Source: Wickerhamiella versatilis
Lineage: Eukaryota
Length of the DNA stretch: 64,000 bases
Direction: 5' to 3'
NCBI GenBank assembly: GCA_030867685.1
Contig: JAQOWU010000008.1
Span: 4,402,001 to 4,466,000 of the forward strand
Shown here: positions 14,158 through 47,701 of the stretch, one piece after another
Layout of the letters: the number at the start of each line of letters is the position of its first letter
Position numbering within the stretch: position 1 is the stretch's first letter
The notes under the pieces: generated by a model
Told to the model about the DNA's origin: nothing
What the model saw: the letters and a program-made list of their open reading frames with translations, nothing else
Databases searched by the model: none
Made by a program: the position numbers and the translations under genes

Positions 14158-14200
14158 ATTACTTTATGATTTGAGATCGAGGAATTGGTCGAGCTTTAAC

Positions 14201-14246
14201 TTTATATAGTTGCCCGACCCCCAGCCCGACCCCCAGCCCCTACCCC
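14201..14246 (-). promoter_or_regulatory. ALD promoter: six G-tracts (G4-like, with STRE/Mig1-like sites) abutting a TATA box
   Basis: Minus strand reads GGGGTAGGGGCTGGGGGTCGGGCTGGGGGTCGGGCAACTATATAAA, about 45 bp upstream of the ATG. Confidence 0.6.
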
Positions 14247-15036
14247 TGGTAGCCATGATCGGCGCTTACCCGATGATAGTCATCACGTGTAAATCATATA
14301 CAAATAGGCTTGATAGCCTTCTAAATTGATTGTTTACACTGAAGAGGGAGTACTTGGCACCGCACAATTATTTTGGTATGCTGGTAAGTTGTCTCAAGCT
14401 TTCGGAGACCTTTATTATAGCAATACCTCCCAGTTTATAACTTTTCTGTCTTTCGTGGGCTGAAGCTCTGAGTGTAGGATCCGGTCCGACTTCGGGCATG
14501 TTCCATATTGAACGCGGGGTAGCATCTTGATCAACGTGCAGATACCCTAGGTCCTGCATCTGGGCTCATGGATAGGGTGGATACGGGACAAAATCGGGTG
14601 GTTCATGTTTGATTAATAGAATACCTGTACATATTTTAATGAAATAAGCCTACTTATTTATCATAAGTGGATATGCGAGCATTTACTAGCAGTATACTGG
14701 ATAGTAACCGATCTATTGTGCGTCAGGATCTTGGTAGTGTTTGCCAAAAAATCCTGAGATGGGGACGTTTCTAGATAGATTTTTTTTTCTATACATCAAT
14801 ATCGCCAAGCAATCTTCGAGCTTGTTTGTGCACTCCAATGTAAGATAACTACGGACTGCTCGGTCTTGAAGATTGCATCCGTGTCTGCGTGTCTGCGAGC
14901 ATCTGCAAGAAGCAGACTTCACTAATAATAACGACTGATATGACGGTAGCAGTATATAGGCTACAAAAAGTCTATATGACATCTTTATTTGGTGTCTTTC
15001 CGCCAAATACGACGTAGCCACATTTTGTCTAACACT

Positions 15037-17124: not shown

Positions 17125-17937
17125 ATTGTGGTAAAAAGCTACTCCATGGAACAGTGGTTATTTAAGTATCATCCTTGGTGGATGGTGGGTGCTTACTACG
17201 AGGGTCCCACCGCTCTCCAGGATGGTGGTAGCACCTTTTACCATAAAGAGAGGGAATTATTTTCGAGAGAATCGATTCATTTTTTGGTCTATGGGCTGGT
17301 TCCCCCGAGCACCCAGTACCTCAGCCCCGTAAAATATGGAACTATGAATCTAAACCAAACCAACCCCATGACCTGCTATTACTAACATTAAGGTTATAGA
17401 TATCTCAATTGATCGATACTCGATTCGTTGTTAAAAATCATTGTCTGGTATAAGTTGCTGGATCTCTGGACTTCCAAACACGAGAACGACGATATAAGTT
17501 GGTCAGGGAACGAAAAGCTTATTGATATACGCTCTCGTGGGACTAATCCCGGACGACGGAAAAATGTTTTTAGCTTTCTCAGCGCACCTCGTAATACCAA
17601 TATATAGTGTTCTGAGACAAGTCCATGAAGAATTTAGCTACATTTATCTGGTTAATTGTATTGAGTACCCAGAGTACTTTATAATTGGCTGGTATGTTTA
17701 TTAAGTTCACACTCAGAATATGCATCTATACGAAGATGTTCTCAACCAATCCTTTAATAAGTCAAGTTTAACAGTATAATCTTATATTAACACCTACTCA
17801 ATAAGAGAACGACGGGCACCCGGTGCGGTACAGCACAGCAGTGAACATCACACAGGCTTCTAATCAATCATTAATGATGACAAATAAAAACGTTTGCTGT
17901 AATAGTATAACCTGGCCCTGATTAAGGACTCTACCTC

Positions 17938-18972
17938 ATGACATTTGTTTTCTTCTTCACTGGAGCGACTGGATACATTGGTGGCACTGTATTAGCCCGG
18001 TTCTTTACTGAACTTAGTACTAAGGATTCACCATTAAAAGATTTTGAATTTCGCGTCCTTGTTCGCTCTGGAAATAAAAAAGATAGGCTAAGTGACTGGC
18101 TAGCCCTGAGAAAACGGAGTGAAAAGGTAACGTTTGTTGACGGTAGTCTCGATGACTTGGACCTACTCGAGCGCGAGGCAGCCAGTGCCGATGCTGTTAT
18201 CGACACGGCCGATTGTGATCACATGGCTGGTGTAACCGCCCTCGCCAAGGGTTGTACGGCAGGAGGCACCCTATTTCTTCACACAAGTGGGTGTAGTGCT
18301 CTTCTTGATGAGGAGCATGGGAATGCCCTCAATCCGAAAATATACTATGATGACCGCCCTGAGGACATTGCATCCATTCCCAGCACGGGTCCCCATCGGG
18401 ATGTCGACGAAATGATAAACCGGGTAACTCAAGGAGCCAATGTTGCAACGATAGCGCCTCCACTCATATGGGGCTGTGGTGTCGGAATCAACATTCACAG
18501 CTTCCAGACACCGTACTTAACTCGAAGGGCAATTGAGAATCGTCAGGCATATCACGATGGGCAAGGCATATCTAGATGGGGTCAAATACATGTATGGGAC
18601 TTGGCACTAGCCTATTGGATCCTATTCAAGGCCATGTTCGCAGAGCCGAAGAAGCACAATGGCTTCTACTTTTGCGAGAATGGAGAGTTTGAGTGGAAGT
18701 TCGTGACCCAAGCGATTCAAGAAGGTCTGATCATCAATGCCCTCGCAGAGCCTGGTACCACTTCCCTTGATGCCGACGAAGTGGCTCGGAAGGAGAAATT
18801 GAAGCTTCCGATAGGAGGTATAGCACCCGATTTTGTTGTTTCAGGCAATAGCCGCAATAAAGCAGTGTTGTTAAGGCAATTAGGGTGGGAGCCACATTAT
18901 AGTTCGATGCAAAGCTTCAAGGACTGGCTGGTTACAGAGGTAGGGTTAATACTTGGGGAGGAATATATGTGA
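17938..18972 (+). CDS. NAD(P)-binding epimerase/dehydratase-like atypical SDR
   Basis: FFTGATGYIGGTVL, HTSG, PPLIWG, IHVWDLA, LGWEP motifs. Confidence 0.85.
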   Translation: MTFVFFFTGATGYIGGTVLARFFTELSTKDSPLKDFEFRVLVRSGNKKDRLSDWLALRKRSEKVTFVDGSLDDLDLLEREAASADAVIDTADCDHMAGVTALAKGCTAGGTLFLHTSGCSALLDEEHGNALNPKIYYDDRPEDIASIPSTGPHRDVDEMINRVTQGANVATIAPPLIWGCGVGINIHSFQTPYLTRRAIENRQAYHDGQGISRWGQIHVWDLALAYWILFKAMFAEPKKHNGFYFCENGEFEWKFVTQAIQEGLIINALAEPGTTSLDADEVARKEKLKLPIGGIAPDFVVSGNSRNKAVLLRQLGWEPHYSSMQSFKDWLVTEVGLILGEEYM

Positions 18973-19353
18973 GTTTATCACATTCAGAACTATGGTCATG
19001 GCGCAGCATTTTAAAGAAGATTATAAGTATAGGAAACAATTTTCGATTTAACGCTCTAAATGTCTCTGACGTTATTTGGACAGACTCGCTGGCACTTTTA
19101 ACCAAGCCATAGTCGTCCTTGACCATTTAAGTAGCGGTTTGGGCCATTTTTAACCACTTTTAGCGCTCCTCAGTACCTAAAGTAGCTATGAGCTACTGAA
19201 CTAAAGCCCCTGCAATTTTCGGCTCTACGGCTTATGTATATACATGTGATCTATGTATGTATAATTGGATTAAACTCTGTAGTGTGAGCTCGAGCATCCA
19301 AGTAATCACCTTGTGCATAATAGTGACATTACAGGTTACGGACAAAACGTCAA

Positions 19354-20181
19354 TTAAAGTGAGGTGCTCAGTGTCAAAAACGGCTCGAGGTATCGAGTAA
19401 TAATATCCACAACCACAGGGGCGTAGGTGTGCTTTTTTTCTTCCGAATTTTTTGGAGGTCCATAAAAGTTGTGATCCGCGCCACCCACTATTTCCAACGT
19501 ATGACGGCCTTGAAACTTTGCTGCCCAAATGAGTCCTTCGACCGGAGGAACAGTACGGTCTTCAGCCCCAAATATACTTAGTATCCGCGTATTTTCACTG
19601 AGAAGGCTCCAATTACGTGAATTGAAGGTTGAATTACTGATGAGTTCCGCTAATGGAATCCATTGCTTTGAATAATTTCCATAGCGCCTTGCTGTAATAT
19701 AGTGTCCACCATGAATCAGTATATCATAACCACGTCCTTTTAACGTCAACTCCGCATATTTTTCGACCTCGCATCTTCCTGAGCAGTTCACAAGACAGGG
19801 CAGCCTGTACCCATTTCTAATAGTCCAGTATATAGCGGCGGCAAATCCTCTACTATGACCCACTATAGTGAAGAGTACAAGACCCTTGGATTCAAAGTGA
19901 TTAACAACCTCTGAGATATCCTCGAAATCGGTGTGATACACAGTTCGTCCAGACGACTGAGGATTTGGGACCGGATCACTATCGCCACAGCTACGAAAGT
20001 CAAACCTAAACGTATAAACACCCAGACTATCAGCAAGTTTCTGACCAAGGAGTCGCTGATAGCAGTAATCCCTATGCCCAGCCAAACCATGTAGAATAAG
20101 CACTAACCGGTCAGAGGTAGGGAGATCAGGAGCAGCCAAGGTTCCCACTACCCGTCCAGTTCTGATCTCTGATTCTTTCAT
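19354..20181 (-). CDS. Alpha/beta hydrolase (esterase-like)
   Basis: LHGLAGH oxyanion motif, FDFRSCGDS, GHSRG nucleophile, D(RTVP), GADHNF catalytic His. First ATG at 20181. Confidence 0.88.
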   Translation of the reverse strand: MKESEIRTGRVVGTLAAPDLPTSDRLVLILHGLAGHRDYCYQRLLGQKLADSLGVYTFRFDFRSCGDSDPVPNPQSSGRTVYHTDFEDISEVVNHFESKGLVLFTIVGHSRGFAAAIYWTIRNGYRLPCLVNCSGRCEVEKYAELTLKGRGYDILIHGGHYITARRYGNYSKQWIPLAELISNSTFNSRNWSLLSENTRILSIFGAEDRTVPPVEGLIWAAKFQGRHTLEIVGGADHNFYGPPKNSEEKKHTYAPVVVDIITRYLEPFLTLSTSL

Positions 20182-21345
20182 TTTCTGAACTCCTTCTCTC
20201 AATGGCTGCTACTATCCCAGAGAGTGAGAGCGACAAAGACGCTGCTTATATGGTAATCCCCGCGAAACTCTCGATTACAAATTGAGGGGTCGCATTAGAG
20301 GACTCCACAATAAGACTAAACTAAACTGTAAGTGATATGAGACTGGAATTCTGGCTGTAAAATATCATCATGTACCTGAATCAGAATGAACTAAATTAGA
20401 CTGGATCCATCTAGGAGTGGTTCGCTAGTAGTGGTAATAATAAACATGATTTTGGAAAATGAATCATCATACAATTGAGCCATGTAGGAGATTCCATAAC
20501 TATTGCAAATTGGACGAGTCCTGGTGTCTAATTGATCATATTGTGCGTGATGCGATGGCATCCATACCCCGAGGTAGCTCGTCTAGTATTAATGTGGACC
20601 AATTCATGATTGAATGCCAAAACAAGAATAGATATAAATATTCATAAAGCCAAATATTTCTAAGTTCCAGGTTCTATCTTGTGTAAAATCTTCTTAAACT
20701 CAGCTTATATACTTTCTCTTTTTACCTGAGACATGTTCGACAATCCGAAAATAGTCCAGTACAATGACACTGATAATAGTCAGAAGAAAAATCGGCAGCT
20801 TAGCTTCTTTCTGCTGACTTTGAATGAAATCAATTGAAGTCAAATAGTGGGAAAAAAGGTACACGAAATTCGCAGAAAACCCACACTCACGAGATGATAG
20901 TATTAGCGGGAACTCTACATACCTACGCTGTTTTCAGAACAGTAGAACTCTTTCAAGTACTTGATCTGAGTCATATATAAGATAGTTGTTCATATATTTT
21001 GCGTATTAAACATGTGCTAGGGCGATTACCTCAGAATACAGGAAGCATGCAGCAATGTGCTTAGGGTCTTGTGAGGGGGAAGTTAATATAAACCTTTGAC
21101 ACTGAATGTATAGACCAACCAGTCGTAGATAGTCTGCCGCTCTTTTGATTTCCCGGAACCAGAGTGCCCAGCAAGCTACACATCTTTATCTTTGATCTAT
21201 AAGAGCCTAAAGTTAGTTGATGCTTCCTAAAAGCCGATGGGCCGCCTCCGATGATAAAAGACTGTCAGCATCACGTGCGGGGAATGAAATATAAATAAGA
21301 AAAAGGTCTTGAGAGCTCCAACCACACAGCCGCGAAAAGGGCAGG

Positions 21346-22257
21346 ATGAGTGGAGTGAATACCATCGCAGTACTGGGTACGGGAGTCTTAGGATCCCAAA
21401 TTATTATGCAGGCTGCCTATAACGGAAAATCCGTACATGTCTACGACATTGATCATAAGATTCTAGACAAATTGTCTAGCCGTTGGGAATGGATACAGGG
21501 ACGCTACAAACAGGACTTACCGAACTATACTGACGCAAAGTTCGACGAGGCGATTTCACGCATCACGACGACAACGGATCTACACAGAGCGGTGACGGGT
21601 GTAGATGCTGTCATTGAAGTAGTACCTGAGGATCTCGAATTGAAGAAAAAGGTATGGAGTCAGGTTGGTGCTGCTGTGGGTGATAATACTTTGCTCTTGA
21701 CGAACACGTCCTCCCTGCGTCCGAGTGACTTTGCAAAAGAGACGGGGCATCCTAAACATTTCCTGGCCCTACACTTTGCCAACTTTATCTGGAAATTCAA
21801 CACCGGTGAAATCATGGGCACTCCCAGCACAGAAAAGGCATACTTCGATAAGACCATCGCCTTTGCCAAGGAGATCGCCATCTTGCCAGTCCCTATCCGC
21901 CAAGAAATTCCAGGATACCTTCTCAATAGTCTACTGATGCCATGGCTAAATGCTGCAGCTGATTTATATGTTAAGAAAGCGGCGAACCCTGCGGATGTGG
22001 ACCTCGACTGGAAGAATTCGACTGGCGCACCAAATGGTCCTTTCGAAGTTTTTGATGTCATTGGTTTTAATGTGGTCGCCAATATTTCAAAACAACACCC
22101 TTCAGATAGTCCTGTGCGACGGTTTGCTAATCTATTGGAGGAGAATGGAATTAAGAAGGGCCATGCTGGTCTGGCTGATGGCATTGGTTTCTATCGATAC
22201 GATGAGGACTCAAAACCTATTGGGCCCAACCCGGAATGGGTCCTCTATAAGGATTAG
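21346..22257 (+). CDS. 3-hydroxyacyl-CoA dehydrogenase, bacterial-type
   Basis: VLGTGVLGSQI, EVVPE, TNTSS, LHFAN..W..NTGEIMG, PGYLLNSLL, GPFEVFDVIG. Confidence 0.9.
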   Translation: MSGVNTIAVLGTGVLGSQIIMQAAYNGKSVHVYDIDHKILDKLSSRWEWIQGRYKQDLPNYTDAKFDEAISRITTTTDLHRAVTGVDAVIEVVPEDLELKKKVWSQVGAAVGDNTLLLTNTSSLRPSDFAKETGHPKHFLALHFANFIWKFNTGEIMGTPSTEKAYFDKTIAFAKEIAILPVPIRQEIPGYLLNSLLMPWLNAAADLYVKKAANPADVDLDWKNSTGAPNGPFEVFDVIGFNVVANISKQHPSDSPVRRFANLLEENGIKKGHAGLADGIGFYRYDEDSKPIGPNPEWVLYKD

Positions 22258-22820
22258 TGTGTGGCTTGATCAGGTGAAAGGATGTCATTTGCCTTAGATA
22301 CTTCAGCTAGTGAGTGTTGGCATGCACGCTCGCTTGACATATCTAAGAAAATCAATATATCCCTTAATGTCTCACACTAAATATGCTAAATTGTACATTA
22401 TCTGATTTGACATATATGCAACGACCCTTCACTCTATATAGGAGCGAAGGTCACTAAAACTTGATAGTATTTTGTGTCCCTAGTTTAGCATTGATCTATC
22501 GGTACATGTTTCTATCCTTTTATTGGTCGCTATAGCTGTATGATACATAGTGCAGTGGAATGGTTATCACGTTAACTGAATTGTGTCTCCTTGCTCAGCT
22601 AGTTGGACAACTCACAAGCATAGCTAGGTGACAGGAGGCAAATTGGAGAGGACCACATAGTCTCACAAGCTGAGACTGGTTAGACAATGCTTGAAGTAAG
22701 CAACCCTAGTAGAATTAATATTTATTATCTCCGACCCCCGTATGATTACTTATCATTGTGTGTGTTCTCAATTGGCCTTCACATCGCACAGTATAAGGTG
22801 TACATTTATACCAACTTTCT

Positions 22821-24608
22821 ATGACTGTACCTACAATTGCGGGAAGACCGTTCACGGTCTTGGGAGCCGGTACACTTGGGCGTCGTATTGCGCTCATGTG
22901 GCTTACCCGAGGCCGTCAGGTAAATCTTTACGATACCTCTAACGCTGCCCTCAGCAGCGCAGAGCAATTCATCGGTGACAATCTGATCTCCACGATATCG
23001 ACTGCTGTGCCAGACGGTAAGCCTGGAATGCTTAAGCTTCATTCTGATCTGGGGGCATCCTTGAAGGACAGCTGGATGGTGACTGAGGCAGTTCCCGAGA
23101 TTCAACAATTAAAAATTGATTTGCTCGGGAAAATAAGCACATATATTGATCCTGATACAATTCTTGCAACCAACAGCTCATCGTTTGCAGGTAGAGAGCT
23201 CTACGAAAAGATCCCAGACAGTCGTAAGCCACAGTTCATCAGCACTCACTATTACTTTCCACCAATCACGCGTCTTCTGGAGATTATGGTCAATGATAGA
23301 ACTGACCATGCTCTGCTTGACTTTGTGGCGAAGGAGTCAGAACAGCATGGGTTGCAGCCGTTCAAGATACACAAAGACTCAATAGGTCTGATTGGAAATC
23401 GTATTTGGGCTGCAATAAAGCGTGAGGCAGTCTCTGAGGTGGCTAGTGGCGTAGCATCACCAGCGGAGATTGATCGGCTAATGTCACAGCTCCTGCCAGT
23501 CTTCTCAACCCCTTTAAGATCGATGGACGGAGTAGGCTTAGATACAGTGCGTAACATCGAGAACCATTATCAAACTGTCTATCCTGAGCTGAAACATAAA
23601 TATGGTCAAGTGCTTGATTGCCTAGATAACATGATTGCGGAAGGTAAGCTCGGCAGCAAGGTGAATCAAGGGTTTTATTCATATGTTCCATTAGACAAGC
23701 AACAGCACATCGTCTATCTTGACATCTTTTATGGCCTGGTCCACTACCGCTCACTTGACGGGCGCGAGGATCGAATCATTGCCAAGGATCTCGCTTGTCC
23801 GGATGGGGTACAGGTTGTACCTGACGGATCCATGATCGTCACTTGTATGGGAATACCCGATAGGAACGATGGCTATCTTGTTCGTATTGTGCCAGATGAA
23901 GCCAAGCATAACTGGACGACAGAGGTGATTGTGAGTCCTGGCAGCACCCATACGCCTAAGCAAGTTCAGCTGGATGAAAAAAAGAACCGCATATATTGGT
24001 GTGATCGGGAGGGTGGCGGCATTCAGCGGTGCAATATCGATGGAACCGGCCTTGAAACGCTCTACCGTACAGCTCAAGATATGCCACGTCCACTCACTGA
24101 TCAGACCCAGCAGTGTGTAGGTATTTCCCTGGATAAATCACGAGGACACCTCTACTGGACCCAGAAAGGGCCACCACGTGGTGGACAAGGCCGCATTTTT
24201 CGGATGAATATTGAGCAGCCTGTGGGTTCAGATGTCCATTCGCGTCCGGATGTAGAGATATTATGGGAGAACTTACCGGAACCAATTGATCTTGCCATCA
24301 ACAGCAAATGCGATACACTCTACTGGACCGACCGGGGTGATGGCACCGTGAATTGTGCACCGTTGCCTACCTATGACATTCCGACAGCTACCCCAAAAGG
24401 TCCATCCGACCGTAAAATCGTCGCTCATCACTTCCATCAACCTATTGGTCTAGAGCTTGATGAGTCGAGAGGCCATATGTATGTTTCTGATGCTCAAGGT
24501 GGTATATATCGTCTTAATCTTGATGGGAGTGGCAGGACTGTCCTCCGTGACTCGAAAACCAGTGGATTTACCGGAATCACGTTATCAAAGGGTGATGGTA
24601 CCCCCTGA
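22821..24608 (+). CDS. 3-hydroxyacyl-CoA dehydrogenase fused to a C-terminal YWTD-type six-bladed beta-propeller
   Basis: GAGTLGRRIA, EAVPE, ATNSSS, NRIWAAIKRE, MDGVGLD; then IYWCDREG, LYWTQKG, LYWTDRG, MYVSD repeats. Confidence 0.88.
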   Translation: MTVPTIAGRPFTVLGAGTLGRRIALMWLTRGRQVNLYDTSNAALSSAEQFIGDNLISTISTAVPDGKPGMLKLHSDLGASLKDSWMVTEAVPEIQQLKIDLLGKISTYIDPDTILATNSSSFAGRELYEKIPDSRKPQFISTHYYFPPITRLLEIMVNDRTDHALLDFVAKESEQHGLQPFKIHKDSIGLIGNRIWAAIKREAVSEVASGVASPAEIDRLMSQLLPVFSTPLRSMDGVGLDTVRNIENHYQTVYPELKHKYGQVLDCLDNMIAEGKLGSKVNQGFYSYVPLDKQQHIVYLDIFYGLVHYRSLDGREDRIIAKDLACPDGVQVVPDGSMIVTCMGIPDRNDGYLVRIVPDEAKHNWTTEVIVSPGSTHTPKQVQLDEKKNRIYWCDREGGGIQRCNIDGTGLETLYRTAQDMPRPLTDQTQQCVGISLDKSRGHLYWTQKGPPRGGQGRIFRMNIEQPVGSDVHSRPDVEILWENLPEPIDLAINSKCDTLYWTDRGDGTVNCAPLPTYDIPTATPKGPSDRKIVAHHFHQPIGLELDESRGHMYVSDAQGGIYRLNLDGSGRTVLRDSKTSGFTGITLSKGDGTP

Positions 24609-25049
24609 TTTGCTAACATAGAAAATGTTTTGCATAAAACGCACCTTCGCAACAATATCCGAGGGCATTTAGGATAGCCTGTGTGCAAGTCAGTGAGAAA
24701 GCTCGCGACATACTGGAGCATGGACCCTCTTTAATTGACTATGTAAACCAATTGCGACTTTCTTAATACTGCAGGCATCACCTGTTAGCTGACAAAATAT
24801 TGTAAACGAGACATAAAAAAGCATTCTAAAGGGGAGATATCTTATGCATACTGACATATCTACATTCTACTACTCAGCAAGTCCTAAAATTGGATCTTTT
24901 TATTTCTTTGACCTGAAGAGTGAATCTATGAATAATATAGTAGAAAACTAACTAATATGTTTTGTTTTAGGGGGACGATATGACCTAACCATGGACAAGT
25001 AACACCTAAGTTAGTTCTATAACGACTGCAATAATAACATCATACCCTA

Positions 25050-26336
25050 CTAGAGCTTAGAGATCGTCCTCCTTGCCAATTGGGCTATGTGGACTTCGTC
25101 AGGACCATCGGCAATTCGTAAAGTACGGATCGACGTGTATAATCCTGCCAAAATAGTGTCTTGGGAAACACCCTCACCACCATGTATTTGAATTGCATGA
25201 TCAATGATGCGAAGAGCCATGATTGGAATACGAATCTTGGCCATGGCAATCAGTTCAAGGGCAGCCTTGGGTCCCTTTTGGTCCATTTCATGGGCAGCAG
25301 CCAGCACCAATAGCCTGGCAGAGGTGATATCTATTCGATCCTCAGCAATCCAGGAGGCTATGACTCCTTGCTCGGAAAGCTTCTTGCCAAAGGTTACACG
25401 CGAACGAGAACGTGCGACCCCAAGCTGAAGGGCCTCCTCGGCCGCACCTAATGTCCGCATGCAATGGTGGATTCTTCCCGGACCTAAACGACCCTGCATT
25501 ATTTCGAATCCACGGCCTTCGTCCCACACAACATTCTCCAGTGGTACCTGGACATTGGTAAATCGCACCTCCATGTGACCATGTGGAGCGTCGTCATAGC
25601 CAAATACGGTCAGGGGACGGACTACCTCGACTCCAGGCGTATCCCTAGGCACTATAATGATGCTTTGTTGGCGATAAGGTGTTGCGTTGGGGCTCGTATT
25701 TCCCATAACCAACAGCAGTTTGCATCGGGGGTCGCCTGCACCGGACGACCACCATTTGGTTCCACTGATAACCCAATTCTTGCCCTCACGGGTGATACTC
25801 ATCCCTCTACCAATATTTCTTGCGTCAGAAGAGGCTATTCCTTTCTCTGTCATGCAGAATGCGGACCGAATATCTCCGGATAGAAGCGGCTCCAGCCACT
25901 CCTTCTTCTGTTTGGTATTGGCATACTTTGCCAGCACCTCCATATTTCCCGTATCAGGAGCAGAGCAATTAAATACCTCCGCCCCCATATGACTGACCCG
26001 GCCCATTTGTTCGGCCATTAAGGCGTACTCTAAATTTGTCAAGCCGGCACCCTCACGGTAGTTTTTTGGAAGGAACAAATTCCACAGTCCCTTAGCCTTG
26101 GCCTTTTCTTGAAGGGTATGGATCACTGAGGGGTATACGGTCCATCGACTACCTGTGGCTTTGGCAGCCTCATCAACCTGCTTCTCGAAAATGGGCAACG
26201 CGGGTTTCACATCCTTTTCAATGAACTCCCGAACCGCATAGATTTTTTCTCGGGCCGCAGGCGAAATCAGGGGATCCACAAGGCTAGGAATATCGAATGG
26301 TAGTGCCTTATCGCCTTGACTTGTTACTCCGGGCAT
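25050..26336 (-). CDS. Peroxisomal acyl-CoA dehydrogenase (ACAD10/ACAD11/IBR3-type)
   Basis: GLWNLFLP, FNCSAPDTGNMEVL, KWWSSGAGDPRC, DDAPHGH, QGRLGPGRIHHCMR, RIADGPDEVH; C-terminal SKL (PTS1). Confidence 0.95.
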   Translation of the reverse strand: MPGVTSQGDKALPFDIPSLVDPLISPAAREKIYAVREFIEKDVKPALPIFEKQVDEAAKATGSRWTVYPSVIHTLQEKAKAKGLWNLFLPKNYREGAGLTNLEYALMAEQMGRVSHMGAEVFNCSAPDTGNMEVLAKYANTKQKKEWLEPLLSGDIRSAFCMTEKGIASSDARNIGRGMSITREGKNWVISGTKWWSSGAGDPRCKLLLVMGNTSPNATPYRQQSIIIVPRDTPGVEVVRPLTVFGYDDAPHGHMEVRFTNVQVPLENVVWDEGRGFEIMQGRLGPGRIHHCMRTLGAAEEALQLGVARSRSRVTFGKKLSEQGVIASWIAEDRIDITSARLLVLAAAHEMDQKGPKAALELIAMAKIRIPIMALRIIDHAIQIHGGEGVSQDTILAGLYTSIRTLRIADGPDEVHIAQLARRTISKL

Positions 26337-26639
26337 CTGTGTTTGATTTAATTGCGGGGAGAGCTTCGTAATCAGCTTTTGATCTTCAACCAGACAAATT
26401 TGAATCCTAAAACCATCTGATTATCAAATGCTTAATTGGACAATTTTAGCCGCATTCCAGTTTAGGGAATCATAAGTCAGTGCGGGGGAGGGGTCGACAT
26501 GAGCCAATGCCCTGTTGGCTCGGTGGATCCTTGGGATTATGCGAATGTCTTGCGTTAGCTATCTTATTTTATGGCCTGTGGGTGAGCCACGTTTGATCAT
26601 TAATATTTTAAGTTGCCTGTAATGGTAGGTCTTATATAT

Positions 26640-27731
26640 TCAAAGCTTCACTTGAAGCTCCTTGGTAGCATTGTAGGCTAAATTCCCGAATGTGGGGTAA
26701 AGTTTTCCAAATTCTCCCGCCTGGGCGCTTGATGCTTGGCCCCGTTTTGACCGTGCAGCCACACCTTGAAGAATCACTGCGAGTCTCAGATGCGTATAAG
26801 CCATACCAAACTTCCAATCAGATCTAGGATCATAGACGCCCTGCGAGGCGTAGTATGCGAGTGCCTGGCTGAGTGTCAACGCCCCATTTTCACCTGGATG
26901 TACCTCGAGCATACCCCCCAATTGGATCCCTAGTTGGGCAACATCGAATGGCTGCAGCAAGTTGCCAACATCAGCCAGTGGGTGACCGATGGTGCAGAGT
27001 TCAAAATCAAGCAGGCCAATGATCCGGTTTTCGGTAGGATGATATACGAGATTATCAATTTTATAATCGCCATGCACTATGCAAACTGGTGTATTGCCTG
27101 GCATGTGGGCATTAAGCCAGTCAACAGTCTCCTTAAAGTGAGGAATTGCTTGGATATCCGATCCTTTGGCCTGGGCCTCGGATATCTTAGTTAGCGTTCG
27201 CATCTGACGGGGAAAATGGCTGCCTCCATTGACATTGAATATGTTTGGTGGCAGATTCAACTTCTTTACGTCGAGCGAGTGGATCGTTGCCAGCGTCTGA
27301 AGGGCCGCCTTCCAAAGGGCAGTACGGTCATCAGGCTTAGTATCGGGACTGAATTGGGGCGAGTGGAAGATACGGCCTTCCATGAATTGCATGATATAGA
27401 AAGGGGTTCCAATTAGGCTGGAATCCTCGCAAAGAAGGTAGGTCTTGGGCACAGGCACTTCGGTTCGTGCCAATGCCTGCATTATATAGTATTCCCGGTC
27501 AATTCGGTGGGAAGAGGGCGACAGAAGCTCTCCAGGAGGCTTTTTTCTCAGCACGTACTTACGCTTGTGGGCATCAATTACCAAATACGAAGGATTGGAC
27601 TGCCCATGGCCAAATTGCTTCAGAGTTAAGGGTGTAGAAAATATGTCGGGTCTCTTCTGTTCCAGATACTTTCCCAGTGACTCGACGTCGATTGGATGCC
27701 TTACCTCCCCGGCAAATGAATCCGTGCTCAT
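26640..27731 (-). CDS. APH/phosphotransferase-family kinase (ACAD10/11 N-terminal-domain-like), probably peroxisomal
   Basis: QFGHGQSNPSY, VLRKKPPG, HRIDREY, IGTPFYIM, HGDYKIDN, LDFELCTIGHPLAD, GQASS; ends in VKL (PTS1-like). First ATG at 27731. Confidence 0.92.
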   Translation of the reverse strand: MSTDSFAGEVRHPIDVESLGKYLEQKRPDIFSTPLTLKQFGHGQSNPSYLVIDAHKRKYVLRKKPPGELLSPSSHRIDREYYIMQALARTEVPVPKTYLLCEDSSLIGTPFYIMQFMEGRIFHSPQFSPDTKPDDRTALWKAALQTLATIHSLDVKKLNLPPNIFNVNGGSHFPRQMRTLTKISEAQAKGSDIQAIPHFKETVDWLNAHMPGNTPVCIVHGDYKIDNLVYHPTENRIIGLLDFELCTIGHPLADVGNLLQPFDVAQLGIQLGGMLEVHPGENGALTLSQALAYYASQGVYDPRSDWKFGMAYTHLRLAVILQGVAARSKRGQASSAQAGEFGKLYPTFGNLAYNATKELQVKL

Positions 27732-28356
27732 CACTACCAGTCTTCGTCTCGACGCTTCGTAATCCTGCGGGGTATACCCCCCTAGTTTTAACTTTAGTTA
27801 TATAATATTGACATATGTCTTACAAATGGGTCTTGCGACGGCGTTCAGGGTGACTTTCACCCTTGACTTTTGCATTTGATTCCATTTTTTTGGCTATATG
27901 CTTTTGCAATTCACTAAAAAATATTTCAAAACTCACATACATGTTCCACAGTCATAGGTAGCAATGAATGATCAACGTCGCGATGGTAGACTGAGCCGAA
28001 CCACGCTGGCCCTACAACGAATTAGCCGTTTCCAGCCTACGTCTTCATACAGCACTGCTGGTTTGTCATAGCCAACCGGGATTAATTAAGCTGTGTTGTA
28101 TCTCTTAAACCCTTATCCAGTATTTTTGGGTCCTACCAAGACCCTAGGTGAGTATCTCTTCTCTTACCGAGGTAGGATCCTAAGGGTCACAGTTTGCTCT
28201 CCCCAAACGTAAAAACAGCATCGTTATCTTCCAAAGTCTGTCTGATAACGGGAAAGTGTGGTCCAAGCATATCCTGACCAACCCTACTCACCGATTAAAG
28301 AAGTGGGGAACTATATAATACGGGTAAGGGTACCTCACCATCCTAGCAAATTCACA

Positions 28357-29217
28357 ATGTCTGTTACGGTTATTGGTAGTGGAATCATGGGGACAGGGAT
28401 TGCCTACGTCTGTGCACTCAACGGAGGCATTCCGGTGACCCTGGTAGATACCAGCGAGAAGCAGCTGGAGAACGCAAAAAAGTATACCAAAAAGACCCTG
28501 CAAGAGGCCGTTTCTCGGAAGAAAGTGACTGATACCAGCGCTGAGGAAGCATTCAATCGCATAAAATTCACTACAGATCTCGATGGAGCCGTTAGAGATG
28601 TGGATTTCGTTATCGAGGCCGTTCCTGAACGGCTAGACCTTAAAAAAAGTATTTTCCAGCGGGTGGAGAAGACTGCTAAGAAATCTACGATACTGGCCAC
28701 TAATACATCGAGTATCAGCATCACTAAAATTGCTACGGGTGTCCCTGGGGCCGAGGACCGGGTTATAGGTGTTCATTTCTTCAGCCCGGTCCCCAAGATG
28801 AGGGGTGTCGAGATAATTAAAGGTCTATTGACAAGTGAGGACACTTACACAAAGTCGGTGGAGCTCGTGAAGAAGTTCAAAAAGTCAGTGAGTACCGTTA
28901 TTGATTCTCCTGGATTTTTAGTGAACAGGATTCTCTCGCCCTACCTCTCACAGGCTATTCAACTGTATGAAAATGGCTACGCAACTGCTGAGGATATCGA
29001 TAGAATAATGGTGGATGCGACAGGAATGCCAATGGGACCCCTTCGTCTTGCTGATTTTATTGGCTTGGATACGTTGCTCAGCGTGGACTCCGTGTTGAGA
29101 GAGACCCTTGGCGAGATTGGATATCCAAAGTCGGTGCTTATGCAAAAGCTTGTTGATGCAGGACATCTTGGCATAAAGACTGGGAAGGGTTTCCATACAT
29201 ACAAGTCCAAGCTTTGA
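28357..29217 (+). CDS. Peroxisomal 3-hydroxybutyryl/3-hydroxyacyl-CoA dehydrogenase
   Basis: VIGSGIMGTGIA, EAVPE, ATNTSSISIT, HFFSPVP, PGFLVNR, PMGPLRLADFIGLD; C-terminal SKL. First ATG at 28357. Confidence 0.93.
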   Translation: MSVTVIGSGIMGTGIAYVCALNGGIPVTLVDTSEKQLENAKKYTKKTLQEAVSRKKVTDTSAEEAFNRIKFTTDLDGAVRDVDFVIEAVPERLDLKKSIFQRVEKTAKKSTILATNTSSISITKIATGVPGAEDRVIGVHFFSPVPKMRGVEIIKGLLTSEDTYTKSVELVKKFKKSVSTVIDSPGFLVNRILSPYLSQAIQLYENGYATAEDIDRIMVDATGMPMGPLRLADFIGLDTLLSVDSVLRETLGEIGYPKSVLMQKLVDAGHLGIKTGKGFHTYKSKL

Positions 29218-30213
29218 AGTGTGTCGGCCCTCGTTTTCACCTGGATACCAGATGCCGTAGCCACTTCACTACCAGTGGACCACTAAGCAATTATTACTGT
29301 AGGAGAAGGTGGAACACAAATGCATTTTTTGTTCGTAAAGTGCTTTAAATTTTAGTCTTTTATATTCAATGTGCTTTACATTTTGTGCGCACCATGTCTA
29401 ACCTTGGCTGAATAGCTATTTCTTGACGCATAACGATATGAGTATGGCAAGGTATATTGAAACACCAAAATGCAGCCACCTACTTTTTTTTGTGCTGATA
29501 TATTTTAGCTCATACATACATAATAGATCCAATGATTATAACTCGAGCCGATTTGGCCAAGTATAATGGTGCGCTGTACTAGTCTCCAGCTGGAGGACCC
29601 AGTAATTGGTGAGAATGATGTAGGGTTAATACCATAGTCGGTAATTCGCGAGTGATAAATAAATCTGGCATTCTTCCACCAGAAAATCTTTCTCATAAGG
29701 CGGTGTGCATAAGTCTACATATTACCTTGGATATTGTTTGAAAAGCCAATCAAATTTAGGGGCGATTTGGATGTAGCTGCTCATTGTGCAGTATCAATCT
29801 AGGATTGATTGGAATATCAAATAGCTCAGATCTTTGAGCCTTAAGCATACATAAACTCTAACTTTGGACTCTCTATCAGAATCATCGACACGTGAGGAGT
29901 GCAGAACTTGCAAATTGAGTAGATAGTAGATATATAAATTTTATGCACGCATAATTCCATATATATTATACTTGGCAATATCAATATCGCCTAACAAAGC
30001 TGTGACAGATCTGTTACTCTTATTTCCATGAACAAACTAGGTGATATTGAAGTTATCTACGGTTTTGATTATCCTTGGATACAGTTCGAACGTTTTCCGA
30101 CTAAGAGCGCTAAATGGACATCAGAGCATTTTAGGTATAATCCAACCAGTCTCAGGTAGTGAAGAATTCACAGTGATGGCTAGTCTCCCCGGGTAACCCT
30201 CGCTAACCCACCG

Positions 30214-30792
30214 CTAATATGCACACTTCGCGTTTTCGAAAGCAGTTGTGTTGGGCTTGAGAGAAATTATAAGTTGAACACAGGGTATGTCTCCGGCATT
30301 TCGTGTGATATGACCGACACGGGTATCGTTTCCACGAGGACGGGCGTCAGTTTCTGCATTAAACTGCATCTCGCCAGCACCCTGTCTGATAATATTTCCA
30401 TCTGTTGTTTCAACAGACCATGCGCCAGAGAGAATAACGATCCATTGAGGACTTGGTGCATGATGCCAAGAGCCGACATAGCCAACAGGAAGAATCCCAT
30501 AGGTGATATGGTCAACTTCATCAGGTGACACGCCCACCCACTCTGGCGTGGCTGGCGGAGCAAATGTTTGCAAAGCAAGACCTTCAAACTCACAGTTAAC
30601 GATGTGAGTGGCGCCAGATTCATCCGCCCAGACGTTTGCATAGGCAATCTGCGGCTGTATCTGTCCTTTGGACACTGTTGTATGGTTCTCTATTTCAACT
30701 GCATACGCCGTACCATTTCCTGTAATGGCTGCACCTGATGTAAACTGCAGTAGAGATATCAAAGAGACAATAATATTGTTAGCAACACGCAT
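30214..30792 (-). CDS. Secreted cupin-domain protein, bacterial-type
   Basis: Signal peptide; VWADESGATH, LPVGYVGSWHHAPSPQWIVILSGAWSVETTDG (cupin motif 1), GHITRNAGD (motif 2). Confidence 0.78.
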   Translation of the reverse strand: MRVANNIIVSLISLLQFTSGAAITGNGTAYAVEIENHTTVSKGQIQPQIAYANVWADESGATHIVNCEFEGLALQTFAPPATPEWVGVSPDEVDHITYGILPVGYVGSWHHAPSPQWIVILSGAWSVETTDGNIIRQGAGEMQFNAETDARPRGNDTRVGHITRNAGDIPCVQLIISLKPNTTAFENAKCAY

Positions 30793-33590
30793 TCGTTAAT
30801 CGTTATGGTTTGTAACACACTGATCAGCATTATATGTATGTATATAGTAAGTAATCATATAGCTTTCGTGCCACAAATTCACATTGGTTTTCTTTATTTA
30901 ATACTGAGCACTATAATATTTGCAGGTATATTAATTAAGGGGACGCTCTCAAGACAGTGGTGGACAGAGGTAATCCCAGAATGGCCTGTCATGTAGATCA
31001 GGGATTTGGGCTGAGACGAAGATCAAAATATATCGATAGCGGGTCTCAATTTGCACTCACTTACCTTAATATAGAGAGACCCAAATACTGGTTTTTGTAA
31101 AGTGAAGCCTTGAGCTAGCCGGCTGCTTGGGTTTGTTATCGACGAGTTTAAGAGTTAGCCTGCCTAGGGCTCTTCTATTTACCCATCCAGTACATAAACT
31201 GGTGCAAACTTCACAACCAGCTTTGTGCCACATAGACGCTAGCTCTTTTATAATTTTTGCGTTTCTCTTAAGCAAAACTTAGTATAAGTACCAAACCTAT
31301 GGCAACAGCCTATTGAATAGCTCTTCTTATCTATTGGTTTATAAGCCTAGACAGCTCAATTACGTACGAGATGCGGGATAAGTGCCAGCAAGAGAAGATT
31401 GAGATGCTGGCAATTATAATGATAGGGAAATTTTCAAGCTTGAGAATTGCTCCGTATTGGACATAAATGATTCTGTGCGCAAATGTCTGAGATCCATTAT
31501 AGCGCACGCTACATCGGTACGTAGGGTAGGGTGTATATGCAATGAATACGAGAGCAGCAAAGATTGATTCCAGGGCCATAGCAACAGACACCTGGGTTTT
31601 CTACTCGGTTAATCATAACTATTTTGGAGATCTCCACCGTAGCATACATTTGTGGTTCTCTTCTCCCTGGTTTATAGACCTATGAGCTCAAGCTTTAAGG
31701 GTCAGTGGCGGCACTGCAACTACTCACGGACTATTTTAAATGGCCAAAAAAAAGTCACATTGTACTTAGTTGTGCTCGATATCGGCTGGCTAATTTAAAT
31801 CAAGGGTACGGTATTATACATCAGACAACGATGTTAGGGTAATACGCATTACGCTGCATCAAGGAAAAAAATCAAGTGTCTGGAGATGCACGTGGTAAAA
31901 GTGAAAAAGATGGGAGCTTCTACGATCTAGAAAATATTAGCACTGATCTCTGATAAATGAGAAGAGAAGCCTGAATTTGTATTTGTTCCTTCGAATGTTT
32001 GAGGTGTCATAACGCCAACTAATGCTAGCATGAGAAGTTAGCTTATTTCTATATGTAAGTGATTATTTCCATCCCATTAGCGTAGAAAGGGTTTGTCAGT
32101 ATGAATCATACGTCCTAGACTCTATCCTCTTACCATCACACCAAACTATTGGCTACTTCTCGTTATCAAATACTTGCGGACATTTATACTATATGCTGTA
32201 TTTCTAAACGGATGATTTCCTAAACTATTCAAAAGATAATTTGACTAATTTATGCGTGCCTGAAAAGTCCTCTAAACCTATCGAATTCGTCGTAATTTTT
32301 GAAGACGGGGGTGACCGGCAGTAACGTCATAGATCAAGTTCCTCCTCCCCGTCTACTACTAATTATAACGGCCTAGATGCCATTTCTCATTCTATTTCAA
32401 CCCGTCTCATGAAAAATATGTGATGTATTTTGCGTTTGACATTTCTGCCTGAGAAGTACTAGTGACCGCCTGGAATACATAGCAGAGTCAAATGTATGCC
32501 AAATGCCTTGACAGAAACTTGTCTACTCGGTTTACTAGGTTTACTCGGTTAAACTTCGTTAGTAACTTTCTTAACAGAATCCGGAATGTCTATATCTTAG
32601 TGAACTGACACATTTCGCGACGTGATAATGTGTCATTTGACTAAGATAAGTAATTGTGGGATGGTACAGTATCCATGGCCGCCTTAGTTAGCTATATAAA
32701 CCAAAAAGTGACCTTTGCATTCAAGGAGGACAGTGCAGGTGAGTCTAGAGCCATAGCAATATTAAATGTTCTCAAATTTTCCTAAAATTGTTAGAAAATG
32801 CAAGATAGCCCATTGGATTACTACCGATTTTGTACTAGTCATACCATATTATTTAAGATACTATTGATATGTGGAGGGAGAAATATGATAGCAAACAATT
32901 GATGGTGCTCGTGAAATAGTAATATTGCCGAGTAAATCACATTACATCCGCCTGCAACGTCAAGGGAAACCCTAAACACTGTGTATGATGTCGGGGTATG
33001 TCGCTGGACAAATGTGCAGAATTGAGCGGCATCTGTGGATGATAAAAGTTGGATCTGGGCTGAGAAATTTGATTATCTCGTAAATTTTTAACTTAAGCTT
33101 TATCATGAGAAATAGCTCAGCTCAGTTCAGACTCTTAAAAATCGCCTGTAAGCTGCATCTGCTAACGAGATCCTGGCATAGGCTTAAGAAGATCAAGATT
33201 ATCTGAAACACTCACTCAGTTTCTACATGCCCAATAAATACGCATTGGACGCTCGTAAAGTTGTGCCCGTTTGGTAGCTCTCATGCGTAGGAGGAAAATC
33301 CACCCTCCCTCTCCCTAGCCCTAAATGACACTAAATACGGCGCGTTATTCACCAATAAGTGGCAAAAGAATTGTGCAGAATAGAGGAATTACTGTAGGAC
33401 TTGATGTATCTTCCGCTGCTTAAACATTTTTGTCCAAAGTTTGGATGATCGTGAAAAAGGCTACCCTTAGGATGGTAGATCTGCATTGAGGCACAAAGAT
33501 TTGTCATGATTAGTGGCTTGGGAATGTGTGTCAGGGTTTGGCGACATCAAACATATATAGATAATCAACCAGCAAACTGAAAAGTGGCGA

Positions 33591-47131: not shown

Positions 47132-47701
47132 TCAGTAATGAATAATTCCATTAGATGACGAACTAATATCGCTATTACTTATTGTCCTCACATGGTACGG
47201 TAAGGAGTTAAAATTTCCTTCTGCGACCTCGATTGAATCAGGGCCCACCCCGGTAATGAAAGCCGCATGGCCAAAGTTTGTCAAATAGTGAACACCGTCG
47301 TAGTGGAAAGAAATTACCGACCCAACTGCCGGAGCGAAATCCACTGTGAGTCCTTTGGACCTGGCGTTTTGCGCCCAATCAGTGGCATCACCTAAGTTTT
47401 CGTAGTATTGCGATGATATTCCCGCATCCTTGAGAATATTAGCCACGAATCCTGTACACTGTCCCGGAGGATAGCCACCAACGGAGTTGTAATAACCAGC
47501 TGTCCCTGCACTTTGTACATTGACCTCATGAGGCTGTGCATTTGCATCAAAATGAAATAGGCCATTGGAATAGTTTATCCATGTATTCTGGTTTATTTCA
47601 CCATCCCGTCTGGTAATTTCTCCGCTATGGATATCATCAGACCGTGGTGCAGCAAGCACGTGTATTGAAAGAAAGAAGAGATGAAAGATTGATGGAAGCA
47701 T
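47132..47701 (-). CDS. Secreted CHAP-domain peptidoglycan hydrolase (amidase/endopeptidase)
   Basis: Signal peptide; YPPGQCTGFV (Cys), LGDATDWA.NA...G.TV...PAVGS, FGHAAFI (His), VAEGN (Glu/Asn). Confidence 0.88.
   Translation of the reverse strand: MLPSIFHLFFLSIHVLAAPRSDDIHSGEITRRDGEINQNTWINYSNGLFHFDANAQPHEVNVQSAGTAGYYNSVGGYPPGQCTGFVANILKDAGISSQYYENLGDATDWAQNARSKGLTVDFAPAVGSVISFHYDGVHYLTNFGHAAFITGVGPDSIEVAEGNFNSLPYHVRTISNSDISSSSNGIIHY

Follow-up and report, generated by a model that had tools for sequence, protein, structure and literature searches.

We analysed a 64,000-nucleotide stretch of the genome of the yeast Wickerhamiella versatilis (contig JAQOWU010000008.1, positions 4,402,001 to 4,466,000 of the forward strand), referred to below as the window. 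Between positions 21346 and 29217 of the window lie five consecutive genes. Two encode an acyl-CoA dehydrogenase (ACAD) and a kinase of the APH fold, and the other three (HAD1, HAD2 and HAD3) belong to the 3-hydroxyacyl-CoA dehydrogenase (3HCDH) family. Read with the standard genetic code, all five are intact open reading frames (ORFs) from ATG to stop:

21346..22257, forward strand: HAD1, 303 aa, C-terminus YKD
22821..24608, forward strand: HAD2, 595 aa, C-terminus GTP
25050..26336, reverse strand: ACAD, 428 aa, C-terminus SKL
26640..27731, reverse strand: APH-fold kinase, 363 aa, C-terminus VKL
28357..29217, forward strand: HAD3, 286 aa, C-terminus SKL

A Pfam scan of the window covered 29 ORFs, all of at least 150 aa, 6 of which had no match. 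The 3HCDH_N and 3HCDH domains were found in HAD1 (E 2.3e-41), HAD2 (9.7e-27) and HAD3 (6.6e-59 and 3.4e-30 for the two domains), three Acyl-CoA_dh domains in the ACAD ORF, and an APH domain in the kinase ORF (5.6e-44). These matches and the translations agree with a preliminary description of the same DNA, which had noted five consecutive acyl-CoA-related genes, three of them ending in SKL, VKL and SKL.

The kinase and acyl-CoA dehydrogenase genes

The ACAD matched mouse ACAD11 (8v3u; E 5.5e-128, 430.7 bits, residues 28-424 against 377-766) and human ACAD11 (2wbi; 2.1e-122, 412.2 bits), compared with 2.6e-34 and 122.1 bits for the best match to an ordinary acyl-CoA dehydrogenase. Passages of a cryo-EM study (PMC12440821) attribute the ability of the ACAD11 subfamily to accept a phosphorylated substrate to R626, the H634-C-M-R637 stretch and the catalytic D753. 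In the window ACAD, R283, the H291-C-M-R294 stretch and D410 (within ADGPDEVH) align with mouse R626, H634/R637 and D753, and among 30 ACAD homologues R283, H291, M293, R294 and D410 are invariant and C292 is nearly so.

The kinase matched 3dxp (6.3e-63) and the kinase domain of mouse ACAD11 (5.8e-59, residues 10-336 against 13-333), and the conserved IDRE and PRQ motifs are present. Its D222 (within HGDYKIDN) and N227 align with mouse D220 and N225. The position aligned with D222 is Asp in structure 8v3v and Ala in 8v3u, and the Asp-to-Ala change marks the kinase-inactive form of ACAD11 (passages of PMC12440821). H220, G221, D222 and N227 of the catalytic HGD...N loop and D242, at the place of the metal-binding Asp, are invariant across 26 fungal sequences.

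The two genes lie on the same strand with the kinase upstream, and they form two ORFs, parted by stop codons and 303 bp, rather than the fused bifunctional layout. In this family the kinase phosphorylates 4-hydroxyacyl-CoA, and 2-enoyl-CoA then arises as the ACAD domain eliminates the phosphate. According to passages of PMC12440821 and PMC11342911, this biochemistry is established in mouse and human (ACAD10/11) and in Pseudomonas putida and Burkholderia pseudomallei (LvaA/LvaC), and the split bacterial proteins do the same job as the fused ACAD10/11; some 3-hydroxyacyl-CoA is also released by LvaC and ACAD10 (a passage of PMC11342911). The similarity to ACAD11 and the retention of its defining residues make it very probable that the window pair is a split form of ACAD11 of the LvaA/LvaC type, as the preliminary description had proposed. 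The APH-fold kinase is predicted to be a 4-hydroxyacyl-CoA 4-kinase, and the ACAD would convert 4-phosphoacyl-CoA to 2-enoyl-CoA by phosphate elimination.

The split had also been presented as special, and this part of the description did not hold, since stand-alone fungal copies with peroxisomal endings are widespread and there is nothing unusual in the split. ACADs of about 400-460 aa and APH proteins of about 355-390 aa, each standing alone, occur in Saccharomycotina, Pezizomycotina, Taphrinomycotina and Mucoromycota, and many Pezizomycotina and some Mucoromycota carry stand-alone forms of both. Among the relatives are ACADs of Sugiyamaella (64% identity), Blastobotrys and Trichomonascus (62%), and kinases of Trichomonascus, Geotrichum, Tortispora, Magnusiomyces and Saitoella. 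Fused fungal kinase-ACAD forms may also exist, beyond the length classes covered by the homologue listing.

The canonical type 1 peroxisomal targeting signal (PTS1) is [SAC][KRH][LM]. It ends 76 of the 120 homologues of the APH protein, and among the 32 closest to the ACAD it ends 23. The SKL C-termini of the window ACAD and HAD3 fit it. The VKL of the kinase lies outside the canonical set; it is the sole VKL among the 120 APH homologues, and the 71% identical relative ends in SNL. We treat it as a non-canonical, PTS1-like ending and a putative signal. Three members of the group thus carry PTS1-type endings (ACAD, kinase and HAD3), as described earlier, and the kinase/ACAD module is probably a widespread fungal function located in peroxisomes. 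A Rhodotorula toruloides mutant in an ACAD11-like gene fails to grow on ricinoleic acid, according to a passage of PMC5922974. A complex prediction for the kinase and the ACAD, run without supplied alignments, scored 0.00 against a mark of 0.34, which weighs neither way on binding.

We also fetched 80 metagenome loci with a fungal kinase (APH) profile, and 19 of them carry an ACAD at least 44% identical to the window ACAD. The ACAD11-type gene of one locus (L064) lies in three pieces and looks as if it contained introns. A further 10 carry only an ACAD of 25-33% identity. In ten loci (L009, L033, L047, L048, L054, L056, L062, L066, L073 and L074) the sole ACAD is 31-33% identical to the window ACAD and sits just upstream of the APH-type kinase gene; these may represent a second, different kinase/ACAD pairing.

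The three 3HCDH-family dehydrogenases

Pairwise identity among HAD1, HAD2 and HAD3 is only 22-31%, so they are not tandem or recent duplicates. All three retain the catalytic Ser, His, Glu and Asn positions in alignments.

HAD3 matched Hbd of Thermus thermophilus (9fbd) at 8.5e-63 and the human HADH at about 1e-59, and it is 38% identical to the 3HCDH gene product of a bacterial APH/ACAD operon (L005, see below). With 297.5 bits against 408, it does not reach the NCBIfam equivalog cut-offs. By these similarities it is a monofunctional L-3-hydroxyacyl-CoA dehydrogenase of the Hbd/HADH type, peroxisomal by its SKL ending. It alone among the three is a typical acyl-CoA enzyme, and it has a PTS1.

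The best solved relative of HAD1 is 6kq9 (E 1.3e-97, 330 bits, residues 6-300), the dehydrogenase of long-chain secondary alcohols from Micrococcus luteus (PDB 6KQ9/6KQB), followed by a diketoreductase of Acinetobacter (4dyd; 5.4e-73, 249.5 bits). The NCBIfam model PRK08293 scored 312.9 bits against a cut-off of 312, and the catalytic positions N120, S122, H143, E155 and N194 are invariant in the alignment. The nearest library cluster (P0363, 52% identical to HAD1) itself scored 494.7 bits against 6kq9. The M. luteus enzyme accepts 10-hydroxystearate and ricinoleate as free acids, and it oxidises free ricinoleate to 12-ketooleate (PMC4911592). Passages of PMC7411827 describe how M. luteus turns 10-hydroxystearate into 10-ketostearate, 4-ketolaurate and finally gamma-dodecalactone, a route with an alcohol dehydrogenase step, and report 4-ketolaurate, which beta-oxidation forms from 10-ketostearate, as blocking beta-oxidation. 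To judge by its closest relatives, HAD1 probably works as an NAD-dependent dehydrogenase/reductase whose substrates are long-chain hydroxy and oxo fatty acids in free form. Both PTS1 and PTS2 were looked for in the HAD1 sequence and neither was found; the protein is presumably cytosolic.

Relatives of HAD1 are few, 177 at E below 1e-30 in a library of 1.8 billion proteins. Four of ten clusters looked up were named, and all four are bacterial (Sphingobacterium, Trueperella, Savagea and Corynebacterium). Separate atlas look-ups named generic 3HCDH clusters only, mostly bacterial, which serve as leads only. HAD1 is likely of bacterial origin by these matches, in keeping with the single bacterial-type member of the preliminary description, and its GC content (0.469) is yeast-like. 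Only two bacterial loci with HAD1 relatives were found (Christensenella and Flexilinea), and the genes around them have unrelated housekeeping roles. Several top library matches to HAD1 (P0361, P0362, P0364 and others of 590-650 aa) match twice, being tandem double-3HCDH proteins, one of them from Sphingobacterium lactis.

HAD2 is a fusion of two domains:

nt 22854-23684, forward strand, residues about 12-288: 3HCDH dehydrogenase domain, by Pfam
nt 23700-24596, forward strand, residues about 294-592: six-bladed YWTD propeller, by sequence and fold

The propeller fusion had been noted before and is confirmed here by sequence (LRP4, 1.7e-21) and by the AlphaFold model of HAD2 (pLDDT 89.8). The best fold matches of the propeller are nidogen, LRP4 and ApoER2 (Z 31.7-30.8, root-mean-square deviation 2.3-2.4, about 250 aligned residues), and the wider set of YWTD propellers, with LRP6 and LDLR added, spans Z 28.8-31.7 and deviations of 2.3-2.6 over about 250 residues. 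Beta-propeller lactonases (a test group of SGL/SMP30, Drp35 and RPA3624) reached Z 23.0-24.9, although fold kinship of this kind cannot decide function. With the YWTD matches 5-8 Z units higher on the model, a lactonase reading of the propeller is not favoured.

The best 120 homologues of HAD2 are mostly proteins of about 590-620 aa, with identities of 40-47% in Basidiomycota and, over 97-99% of the length of HAD2, of 35-38% in Pezizomycotina, Aspergillus included. None of the 120 ends in a canonical PTS1, and HAD2 itself has no targeting signal. In a FastTree phylogeny of 115 rows, from which 6 of the 120 matches shorter than 540 aa had been dropped, HAD2, its 97% identical relative and the long-branched P0136 fall beside the Basidiomycota group and not inside it; the joining of P0136 is possibly a long-branch artefact. 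Transfer of HAD2 from Basidiomycota was rejected on this placement, and its history, as read from the sequences, fits vertical descent with losses.

HAD2 has the architecture described for betaHDH of Aspergillus nidulans (AN8921.4), the one characterised protein of this layout. According to passages of PMC12462446, betaHDH is an NAD-dependent dehydrogenase that acts on (R)-3-hydroxy fatty acids of C8-C14 in free form and is thought to be cytosolic. Its gene adjoins CYP540A2 and a cytochrome b5/b5-reductase fusion (CBBR), and it belongs to a system that is inducible and connected with tolerance of medium-chain fatty acids. By this likeness it is fairly likely that HAD2 acts on free (R)-3-hydroxy medium-chain acids.

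The preliminary description had taken all three proteins for 3-hydroxyacyl-CoA dehydrogenases. That assignment stands for HAD3 and is improbable for HAD1 and HAD2, whose closest characterised relatives are enzymes of free hydroxy acids and which have no targeting signals; for both reasons, a role of these two in oxidising what the ACAD forms inside peroxisomes is unlikely. For annotation there is a lesson: the pipeline label '3-hydroxyacyl-CoA dehydrogenase' covers two genes here whose products probably do not use CoA esters.

A candidate pathway for hydroxy fatty acids

Our confidence is high at the level of the single genes and moderate at the level of the cluster. We put about even weight on the reading that the five genes form a lineage-specific mosaic cluster serving one pathway, the catabolism of hydroxylated, and probably oxo, fatty acids. 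This reading is proposed because the grouping appears non-random and the chemistry converges: by their closest characterised relatives, all five proteins would point to hydroxylated fatty acids. The three 3HCDH paralogues each have different nearest relatives and yet stand among five consecutive genes. By chance this would be expected in roughly one genome in 100,000, if no more than about 6 such genes occur among about 6000, a figure that was assumed for the estimate and not measured.

Bacteria do join a kinase/ACAD module with oxidoreductases and beta-oxidation enzymes, as the content of two operons indicates. An ACAD11-type gene was found in 2 of 401 Bacillota genomes searched (loci L005 and L006), and both loci contain genes for the kinase, a ComB-like protein, a CoA ligase, a TetR regulator and an enoyl-CoA hydratase. 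Additional genes encode a 3HCDH protein, a thiolase and two short-chain dehydrogenases/reductases (SDRs) in L005, and a zinc-type alcohol dehydrogenase and a TRAP transporter in L006. The ComB-like gene, of the 2-phosphosulpholactate phosphatase family, adjoins the kinase gene in both (L005:203-946, reverse strand, 8.4e-64; L006:4541-5287, reverse strand, 4.9e-43), and its product might act on the phosphorylated intermediate.

The arrangement itself is conserved in very close relatives. In one organism (A), a single 117-kb contig is collinear with the window over 14000-29971 at about 96% identity. In a second (B), contigs cover all five genes, and one of them bridges HAD2 and the ACAD. For the 71% identical kinase relative and the 73% identical ACAD relative alike, the longest contig listed has 27,006 bases, a hint that the two genes share a contig there. 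Window DNA was also found in sequencing runs labelled as food-fermentation, food and sediment metagenomes, several of which are possibly its own source.

The proposed pathway would start from mid-chain hydroxy acids, such as ricinoleate or the 10-hydroxystearate formed by bacterial conversion of oleate, which peroxisomal beta-oxidation would shorten until the hydroxyl group stands at C4. Such 4-hydroxy intermediates would otherwise stall or lactonise to gamma-dodecalactone or gamma-decalactone. The kinase would phosphorylate the 4-hydroxyl of 4-hydroxyacyl-CoA, and the ACAD would eliminate the phosphate to give 2-enoyl-CoA for beta-oxidation, removing the block. The multifunctional enzyme of yeast beta-oxidation is D-specific, and HAD3 would handle the L-3-hydroxyacyl-CoA species that it cannot use. 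In the cytosol, HAD2 would oxidise (R)-3-hydroxy medium-chain acids to 3-oxo acids, and HAD1 would interconvert free long-chain hydroxy and oxo acids. HAD1 could act in an LvaD-like manner on 10-ketostearate and other oxo acids, converting them to hydroxy acids within reach of the bypass (for the roles of LvaD and LvaA, see passages of PMC6692424). The CoA ligase, hydratase, thiolase and transport functions would be supplied by unlinked genes of general beta-oxidation. The link of the cluster to 4-hydroxy acids, made in the preliminary description, is plausible; on a use of levulinate the findings weigh neither way.

A fuller version can be told, in which the cluster was assembled piecemeal from a HAD1 acquired from Actinobacteria-like bacteria, an old fungal HAD2 lost from most budding yeasts and a peroxisomal split ACAD11. 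Its host would be a food-fermentation yeast living on the 10-hydroxystearate and 10-ketostearate that its bacterial neighbours form from oleate, with HAD1 as a free-acid, LvaD-like keto-reductase and the kinase/ACAD pair deciding the fate of gamma-lactones. We consider it unlikely that the whole of this account is correct.

The leading alternative is that the genes share no pathway, having become neighbours through rearrangement or through the insertion of acquired genes into a permissive region, with the kinase/ACAD pair serving as general peroxisomal housekeeping, as it would in fungi that have the two genes unlinked. We judge this rather unlikely, although several observations favour it and weigh against a single hydroxy fatty acid pathway. 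Linkage is kept only in the very close relatives and was lost or never present in two other yeasts. The ACAD and APH genes of Trichomonascus vanleenenianus (TRVA0_057S00232 and TRVA0_005S00716) and of Magnusiomyces paraingens (SAPINGB_P005719 and P003075) lie on different scaffolds or far apart. Synteny, which had been named earlier as a check, holds in organism A at about 96% nucleotide identity, holds probably for APH and ACAD at 71-73% protein identity, and fails in these two species. Among the 80 metagenome loci, a 3HCDH gene of any kind occurs in only 3, always closest to HAD3 (26-32%), and a HAD1-like or HAD2-like gene in none; the 3HCDH gene is not a regular companion of the kinase. In a subset of 13 loci, of at least 8 kb and with GC below 0.55, including likely eukaryotic ones, only 3 contain an ACAD11-type gene, L064 being one of them. 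The unlinked locus tags in two yeasts and the scarcity of 3HCDH genes near APH indicate that the cluster is not old.

Further points against a single hydroxy fatty acid pathway concern the genes and their setting. The close kinship of HAD1 to a diketoreductase means that its substrate is not fixed by homology. HAD2 was likened to betaHDH by the architecture described for the latter, and the P450 and CBBR partners of betaHDH are absent from the yeast window, in which no P450 or cytochrome b5 domain was found in the 29 scanned ORFs. The relative nearest to HAD2 after the 97% identical one is 47% identical, and no named Saccharomycotina occur among its best 120 homologues. The 29 ORFs contain no AMP-binding ligase, enoyl-CoA hydratase or thiolase domain, as had been stated before, and the Pfam scan gave no transporter in the window and no regulator among the five genes. 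The five proteins are predicted to reside in two compartments, and no promoter motif above chance is shared by the four upstream regions.

In favour of the no-pathway alternative, the surroundings also show signs of flux, with a homing-endonuclease-like ORF nearby and indels at 24615 and 29971-31834. Organisms A and B have about 240 extra bases right after the HAD2 stop codon (window 24615-24623). Organism A has 87 other letters in place of 29971-30500 and lacks 1037 bases (30797-31833). The only repeats seen in a search of 29800-32200 were a 15-nt direct repeat in two copies and a 14-nt palindrome, which give no hint of a mobile element at the 1-kb gap of organism A. Against an accidental neighbourhood stand the very low chance, under the assumed gene count, of three divergent members of a small family lying beside a related lipid module, the convergence of the closest characterised relatives of all five proteins on hydroxy fatty acids, and the bacterial operons of similar content.

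A second alternative, close to the preliminary description, places all three HAD proteins after the kinase/ACAD step as 3-hydroxyacyl-CoA dehydrogenases of a 4-hydroxy acid, gamma-lactone or levulinate pathway, the propeller perhaps being a lactonase. The two 3HCDH domains and the catalytic Ser, His, Glu and Asn of all three proteins agree with it, as do the 3-hydroxyacyl-CoA released by LvaC and ACAD10 (a passage of PMC11342911) and the 3HCDH gene within one bacterial APH/ACAD operon. The closest characterised relatives of HAD1 and HAD2, however, use free acids, and these two proteins have neither PTS1 nor PTS2, in contrast to the PTS1-type ends of the kinase, the ACAD and HAD3; the lack of a canonical PTS1 extends to all 120 HAD2 homologues. 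Some HAD2 homologues do carry a precomputed match to the lactonase-family Pfam domain SGL, but receptor propellers of the YWTD type fit the fold better (Z 29-32 against 23-25). An lva-like route would further call for a ligase resembling LvaE, which is absent from the window, and for a reductase resembling LvaD, of which there is no clear example among the five genes. We regard this alternative as improbable.

Lastly, a detoxification cluster for toxic medium-chain acids or lipid-peroxidation products, such as 4-hydroxynonenal converted to 4-hydroxy acids by the aldehyde dehydrogenase at 12652-14157 (Pfam 3.1e-178, 7 kb upstream), would accord with the medium-chain tolerance system of betaHDH (passages of PMC12462446) and with a 4-hydroxynonenal catabolism study among the references of PMC12440821, but it is less probable still, as three other genes part the aldehyde dehydrogenase from the five, the P450/CBBR partners of betaHDH are absent and the closest relative of HAD1 acts on C18 hydroxy acids.

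Flanking genes and comparison with known systems

The following features flank or separate the five genes:

12652-14157: aldehyde dehydrogenase
15037-17124, reverse strand: homing-endonuclease-like ORF, 695 aa (Hom_end_hint 9.7e-09, LAGLIDADG Hom_end 9.9e-12)
17938..18972, forward strand: atypical NmrA/SDR-like protein (NmrA 9.7e-4, below the Pfam cut-off), 2.4 kb upstream of the five genes
19354..20181, reverse strand: alpha/beta hydrolase, esterase-like (Pfam Abhydrolase_1, 1.4e-11)
20182..21345: intergenic region from which the alpha/beta hydrolase gene and HAD1 diverge, by gene layout; one CCTCGG at 20569
27732..28356: divergent intergenic region between the kinase gene and HAD3, by gene layout; one CCTCGG at 28167

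In organism A, both the hydrolase and the NmrA-like ORF are collinear with the cluster. The solved relatives of the hydrolase are all weak (for example a cinnamoyl esterase, 5.5e-05), and no homologue of it lies near APH in the 80 metagenome loci. No solved relative was found for the NmrA-like ORF. The homing-endonuclease-like ORF, three genes upstream of the cluster and likewise collinear in organism A, had no match in the plasmid collection and looks like a free-standing gene of the HO/VDE kind.

The region 27732..28356 is a possible common promoter of the kinase gene and HAD3. The sequence CCTCGG, a site of a fungal fatty-acid regulator, occurs 15 times in the window against 15.6 expected; seven copies lie in 20569-28756, and only two of these are in promoter regions. 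The sole 7-mer common to all four upstream regions, TGATCAA, is at about chance level. Contigs of one run (X19, RNA only by guess) leave 20287-21339, 22413-22491, 26360-26539 and 27698-28357 uncovered, all of which a DNA contig of run X16 spans; these gaps, seen in contigs only and in one study, were not counted as evidence of transcription. An X19 contig also skips 445 bases (19527-19973) inside the hydrolase ORF, with ends AA..CC and no canonical intron. The GC content at third codon positions of the five genes (0.466-0.516) is slightly above that of most window genes (about 0.38-0.48), and their codon-usage index is slightly lower; the difference is small and cannot show recent transfer.

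Two further ORFs of the window lie away from the cluster. A 1724-aa ORF at 54040-59214 (reverse strand) has no Pfam match. Its residues include 412 Ser, 346 Thr and 193 Pro, units of the form 'TPSGPGCPV...SSKPSSSGCTPITST' recur in it, and its C-terminus is hydrophobic. The ORF lies in the sole GC-rich (0.53-0.55), strongly GC-skewed part of the window and looks like a mucin- or adhesin-type cell-wall protein. A 189-aa ORF at 47132-47701 (reverse strand) carries a CHAP (cysteine/histidine-dependent amidohydrolase/peptidase) domain (4.4e-14). CHAP domains are mostly known from bacteria and phages, and this may be another bacterial-type gene in this yeast.

All gene families involved here are already known, and the tie between fungal ACAD11 relatives and ricinoleate is already present in the R. 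toruloides fitness data, as far as the passages of that study go. The unusual feature at this locus is the linkage of the genes, not the split. The literature searched contained no description of a fungal cluster joining the kinase/ACAD module to hydroxy-acid dehydrogenases, nor, the R. toruloides fitness data excepted, of a fungal 4-hydroxyacyl-CoA kinase/ACAD step. Yeasts convert ricinoleate and 10-hydroxystearate to gamma-decalactone and gamma-dodecalactone, which are commercial aromas (passages of PMC7411827). For the step that settles the fate of 4-hydroxy acids in yeasts, oxidation or accumulation as gamma-lactones, the kinase and the ACAD are direct candidates. If the proposed pathway is true, the pair would act as a switch between complete oxidation and gamma-lactone accumulation, and knock-outs should raise lactone yields. 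The locus would then also be a rare budding-yeast catabolic cluster mixing a bacterial-type gene with old fungal genes, and a case of a yeast in fermented foods cross-feeding on lipid products of bacteria.

Single members of the cluster can be compared with three known systems. HAD1 shares the 3HCDH fold and the catalytic positions with the M. luteus enzyme; it differs in residing in a yeast genome and in being akin to the Acinetobacter diketoreductase as well. HAD2 and betaHDH (AN8921.4; passages of PMC12462446) have the same order of an N-terminal 3HCDH domain and a C-terminal YWTD propeller, a length of about 600 aa and no targeting signal, whereas HAD2 groups beside the basidiomycete members of the family and not with those of Pezizomycotina. 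RTO4_14567 and RTO4_10408 of R. toruloides are fungal ACAD11 relatives tied by mutant fitness to ricinoleate use, a phenotype that the proposed pathway also predicts; they are basidiomycete genes, and the passages of PMC5922974 report no clustering with hydroxy-acid dehydrogenases.

The kinase/ACAD pair keeps both domains of the mammalian proteins ACAD11 (peroxisomal) and ACAD10 (mitochondrial), together with the catalytic Asp of each domain, the Arg and the HCMR stretch. As in ACAD11, a C-terminal peroxisomal signal is predicted in the yeast pair. In contrast to both mammalian proteins, the yeast has two genes, each with its own PTS1-type end, and unlike ACAD10 it has no haloacid dehalogenase-type (HAD-) phosphatase domain.

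The P. putida lva operon (LvaA, LvaB, LvaC, LvaD and LvaE) serves levulinate and 4-hydroxyvalerate (passages of PMC12440821, PMC11342911 and PMC6692424). It likewise has the split kinase and ACAD side by side and near NAD(P)-dependent oxidoreductases, and the proposed yeast pathway would follow the same order, from keto acid to hydroxy acid, phosphate ester and enoyl- or 3-hydroxyacyl-CoA, as far as these passages describe it. The yeast locus differs from the operon in its eukaryotic host, in the predicted peroxisomal location of three of its products, and in having no LvaE-type ligase in the window and no LvaD-like SDR among the five genes. The yeast oxidoreductases are of the 3HCDH family rather than SDRs, and for two of them the probable substrates are free acids of long or medium chain length instead of levulinyl-CoA.

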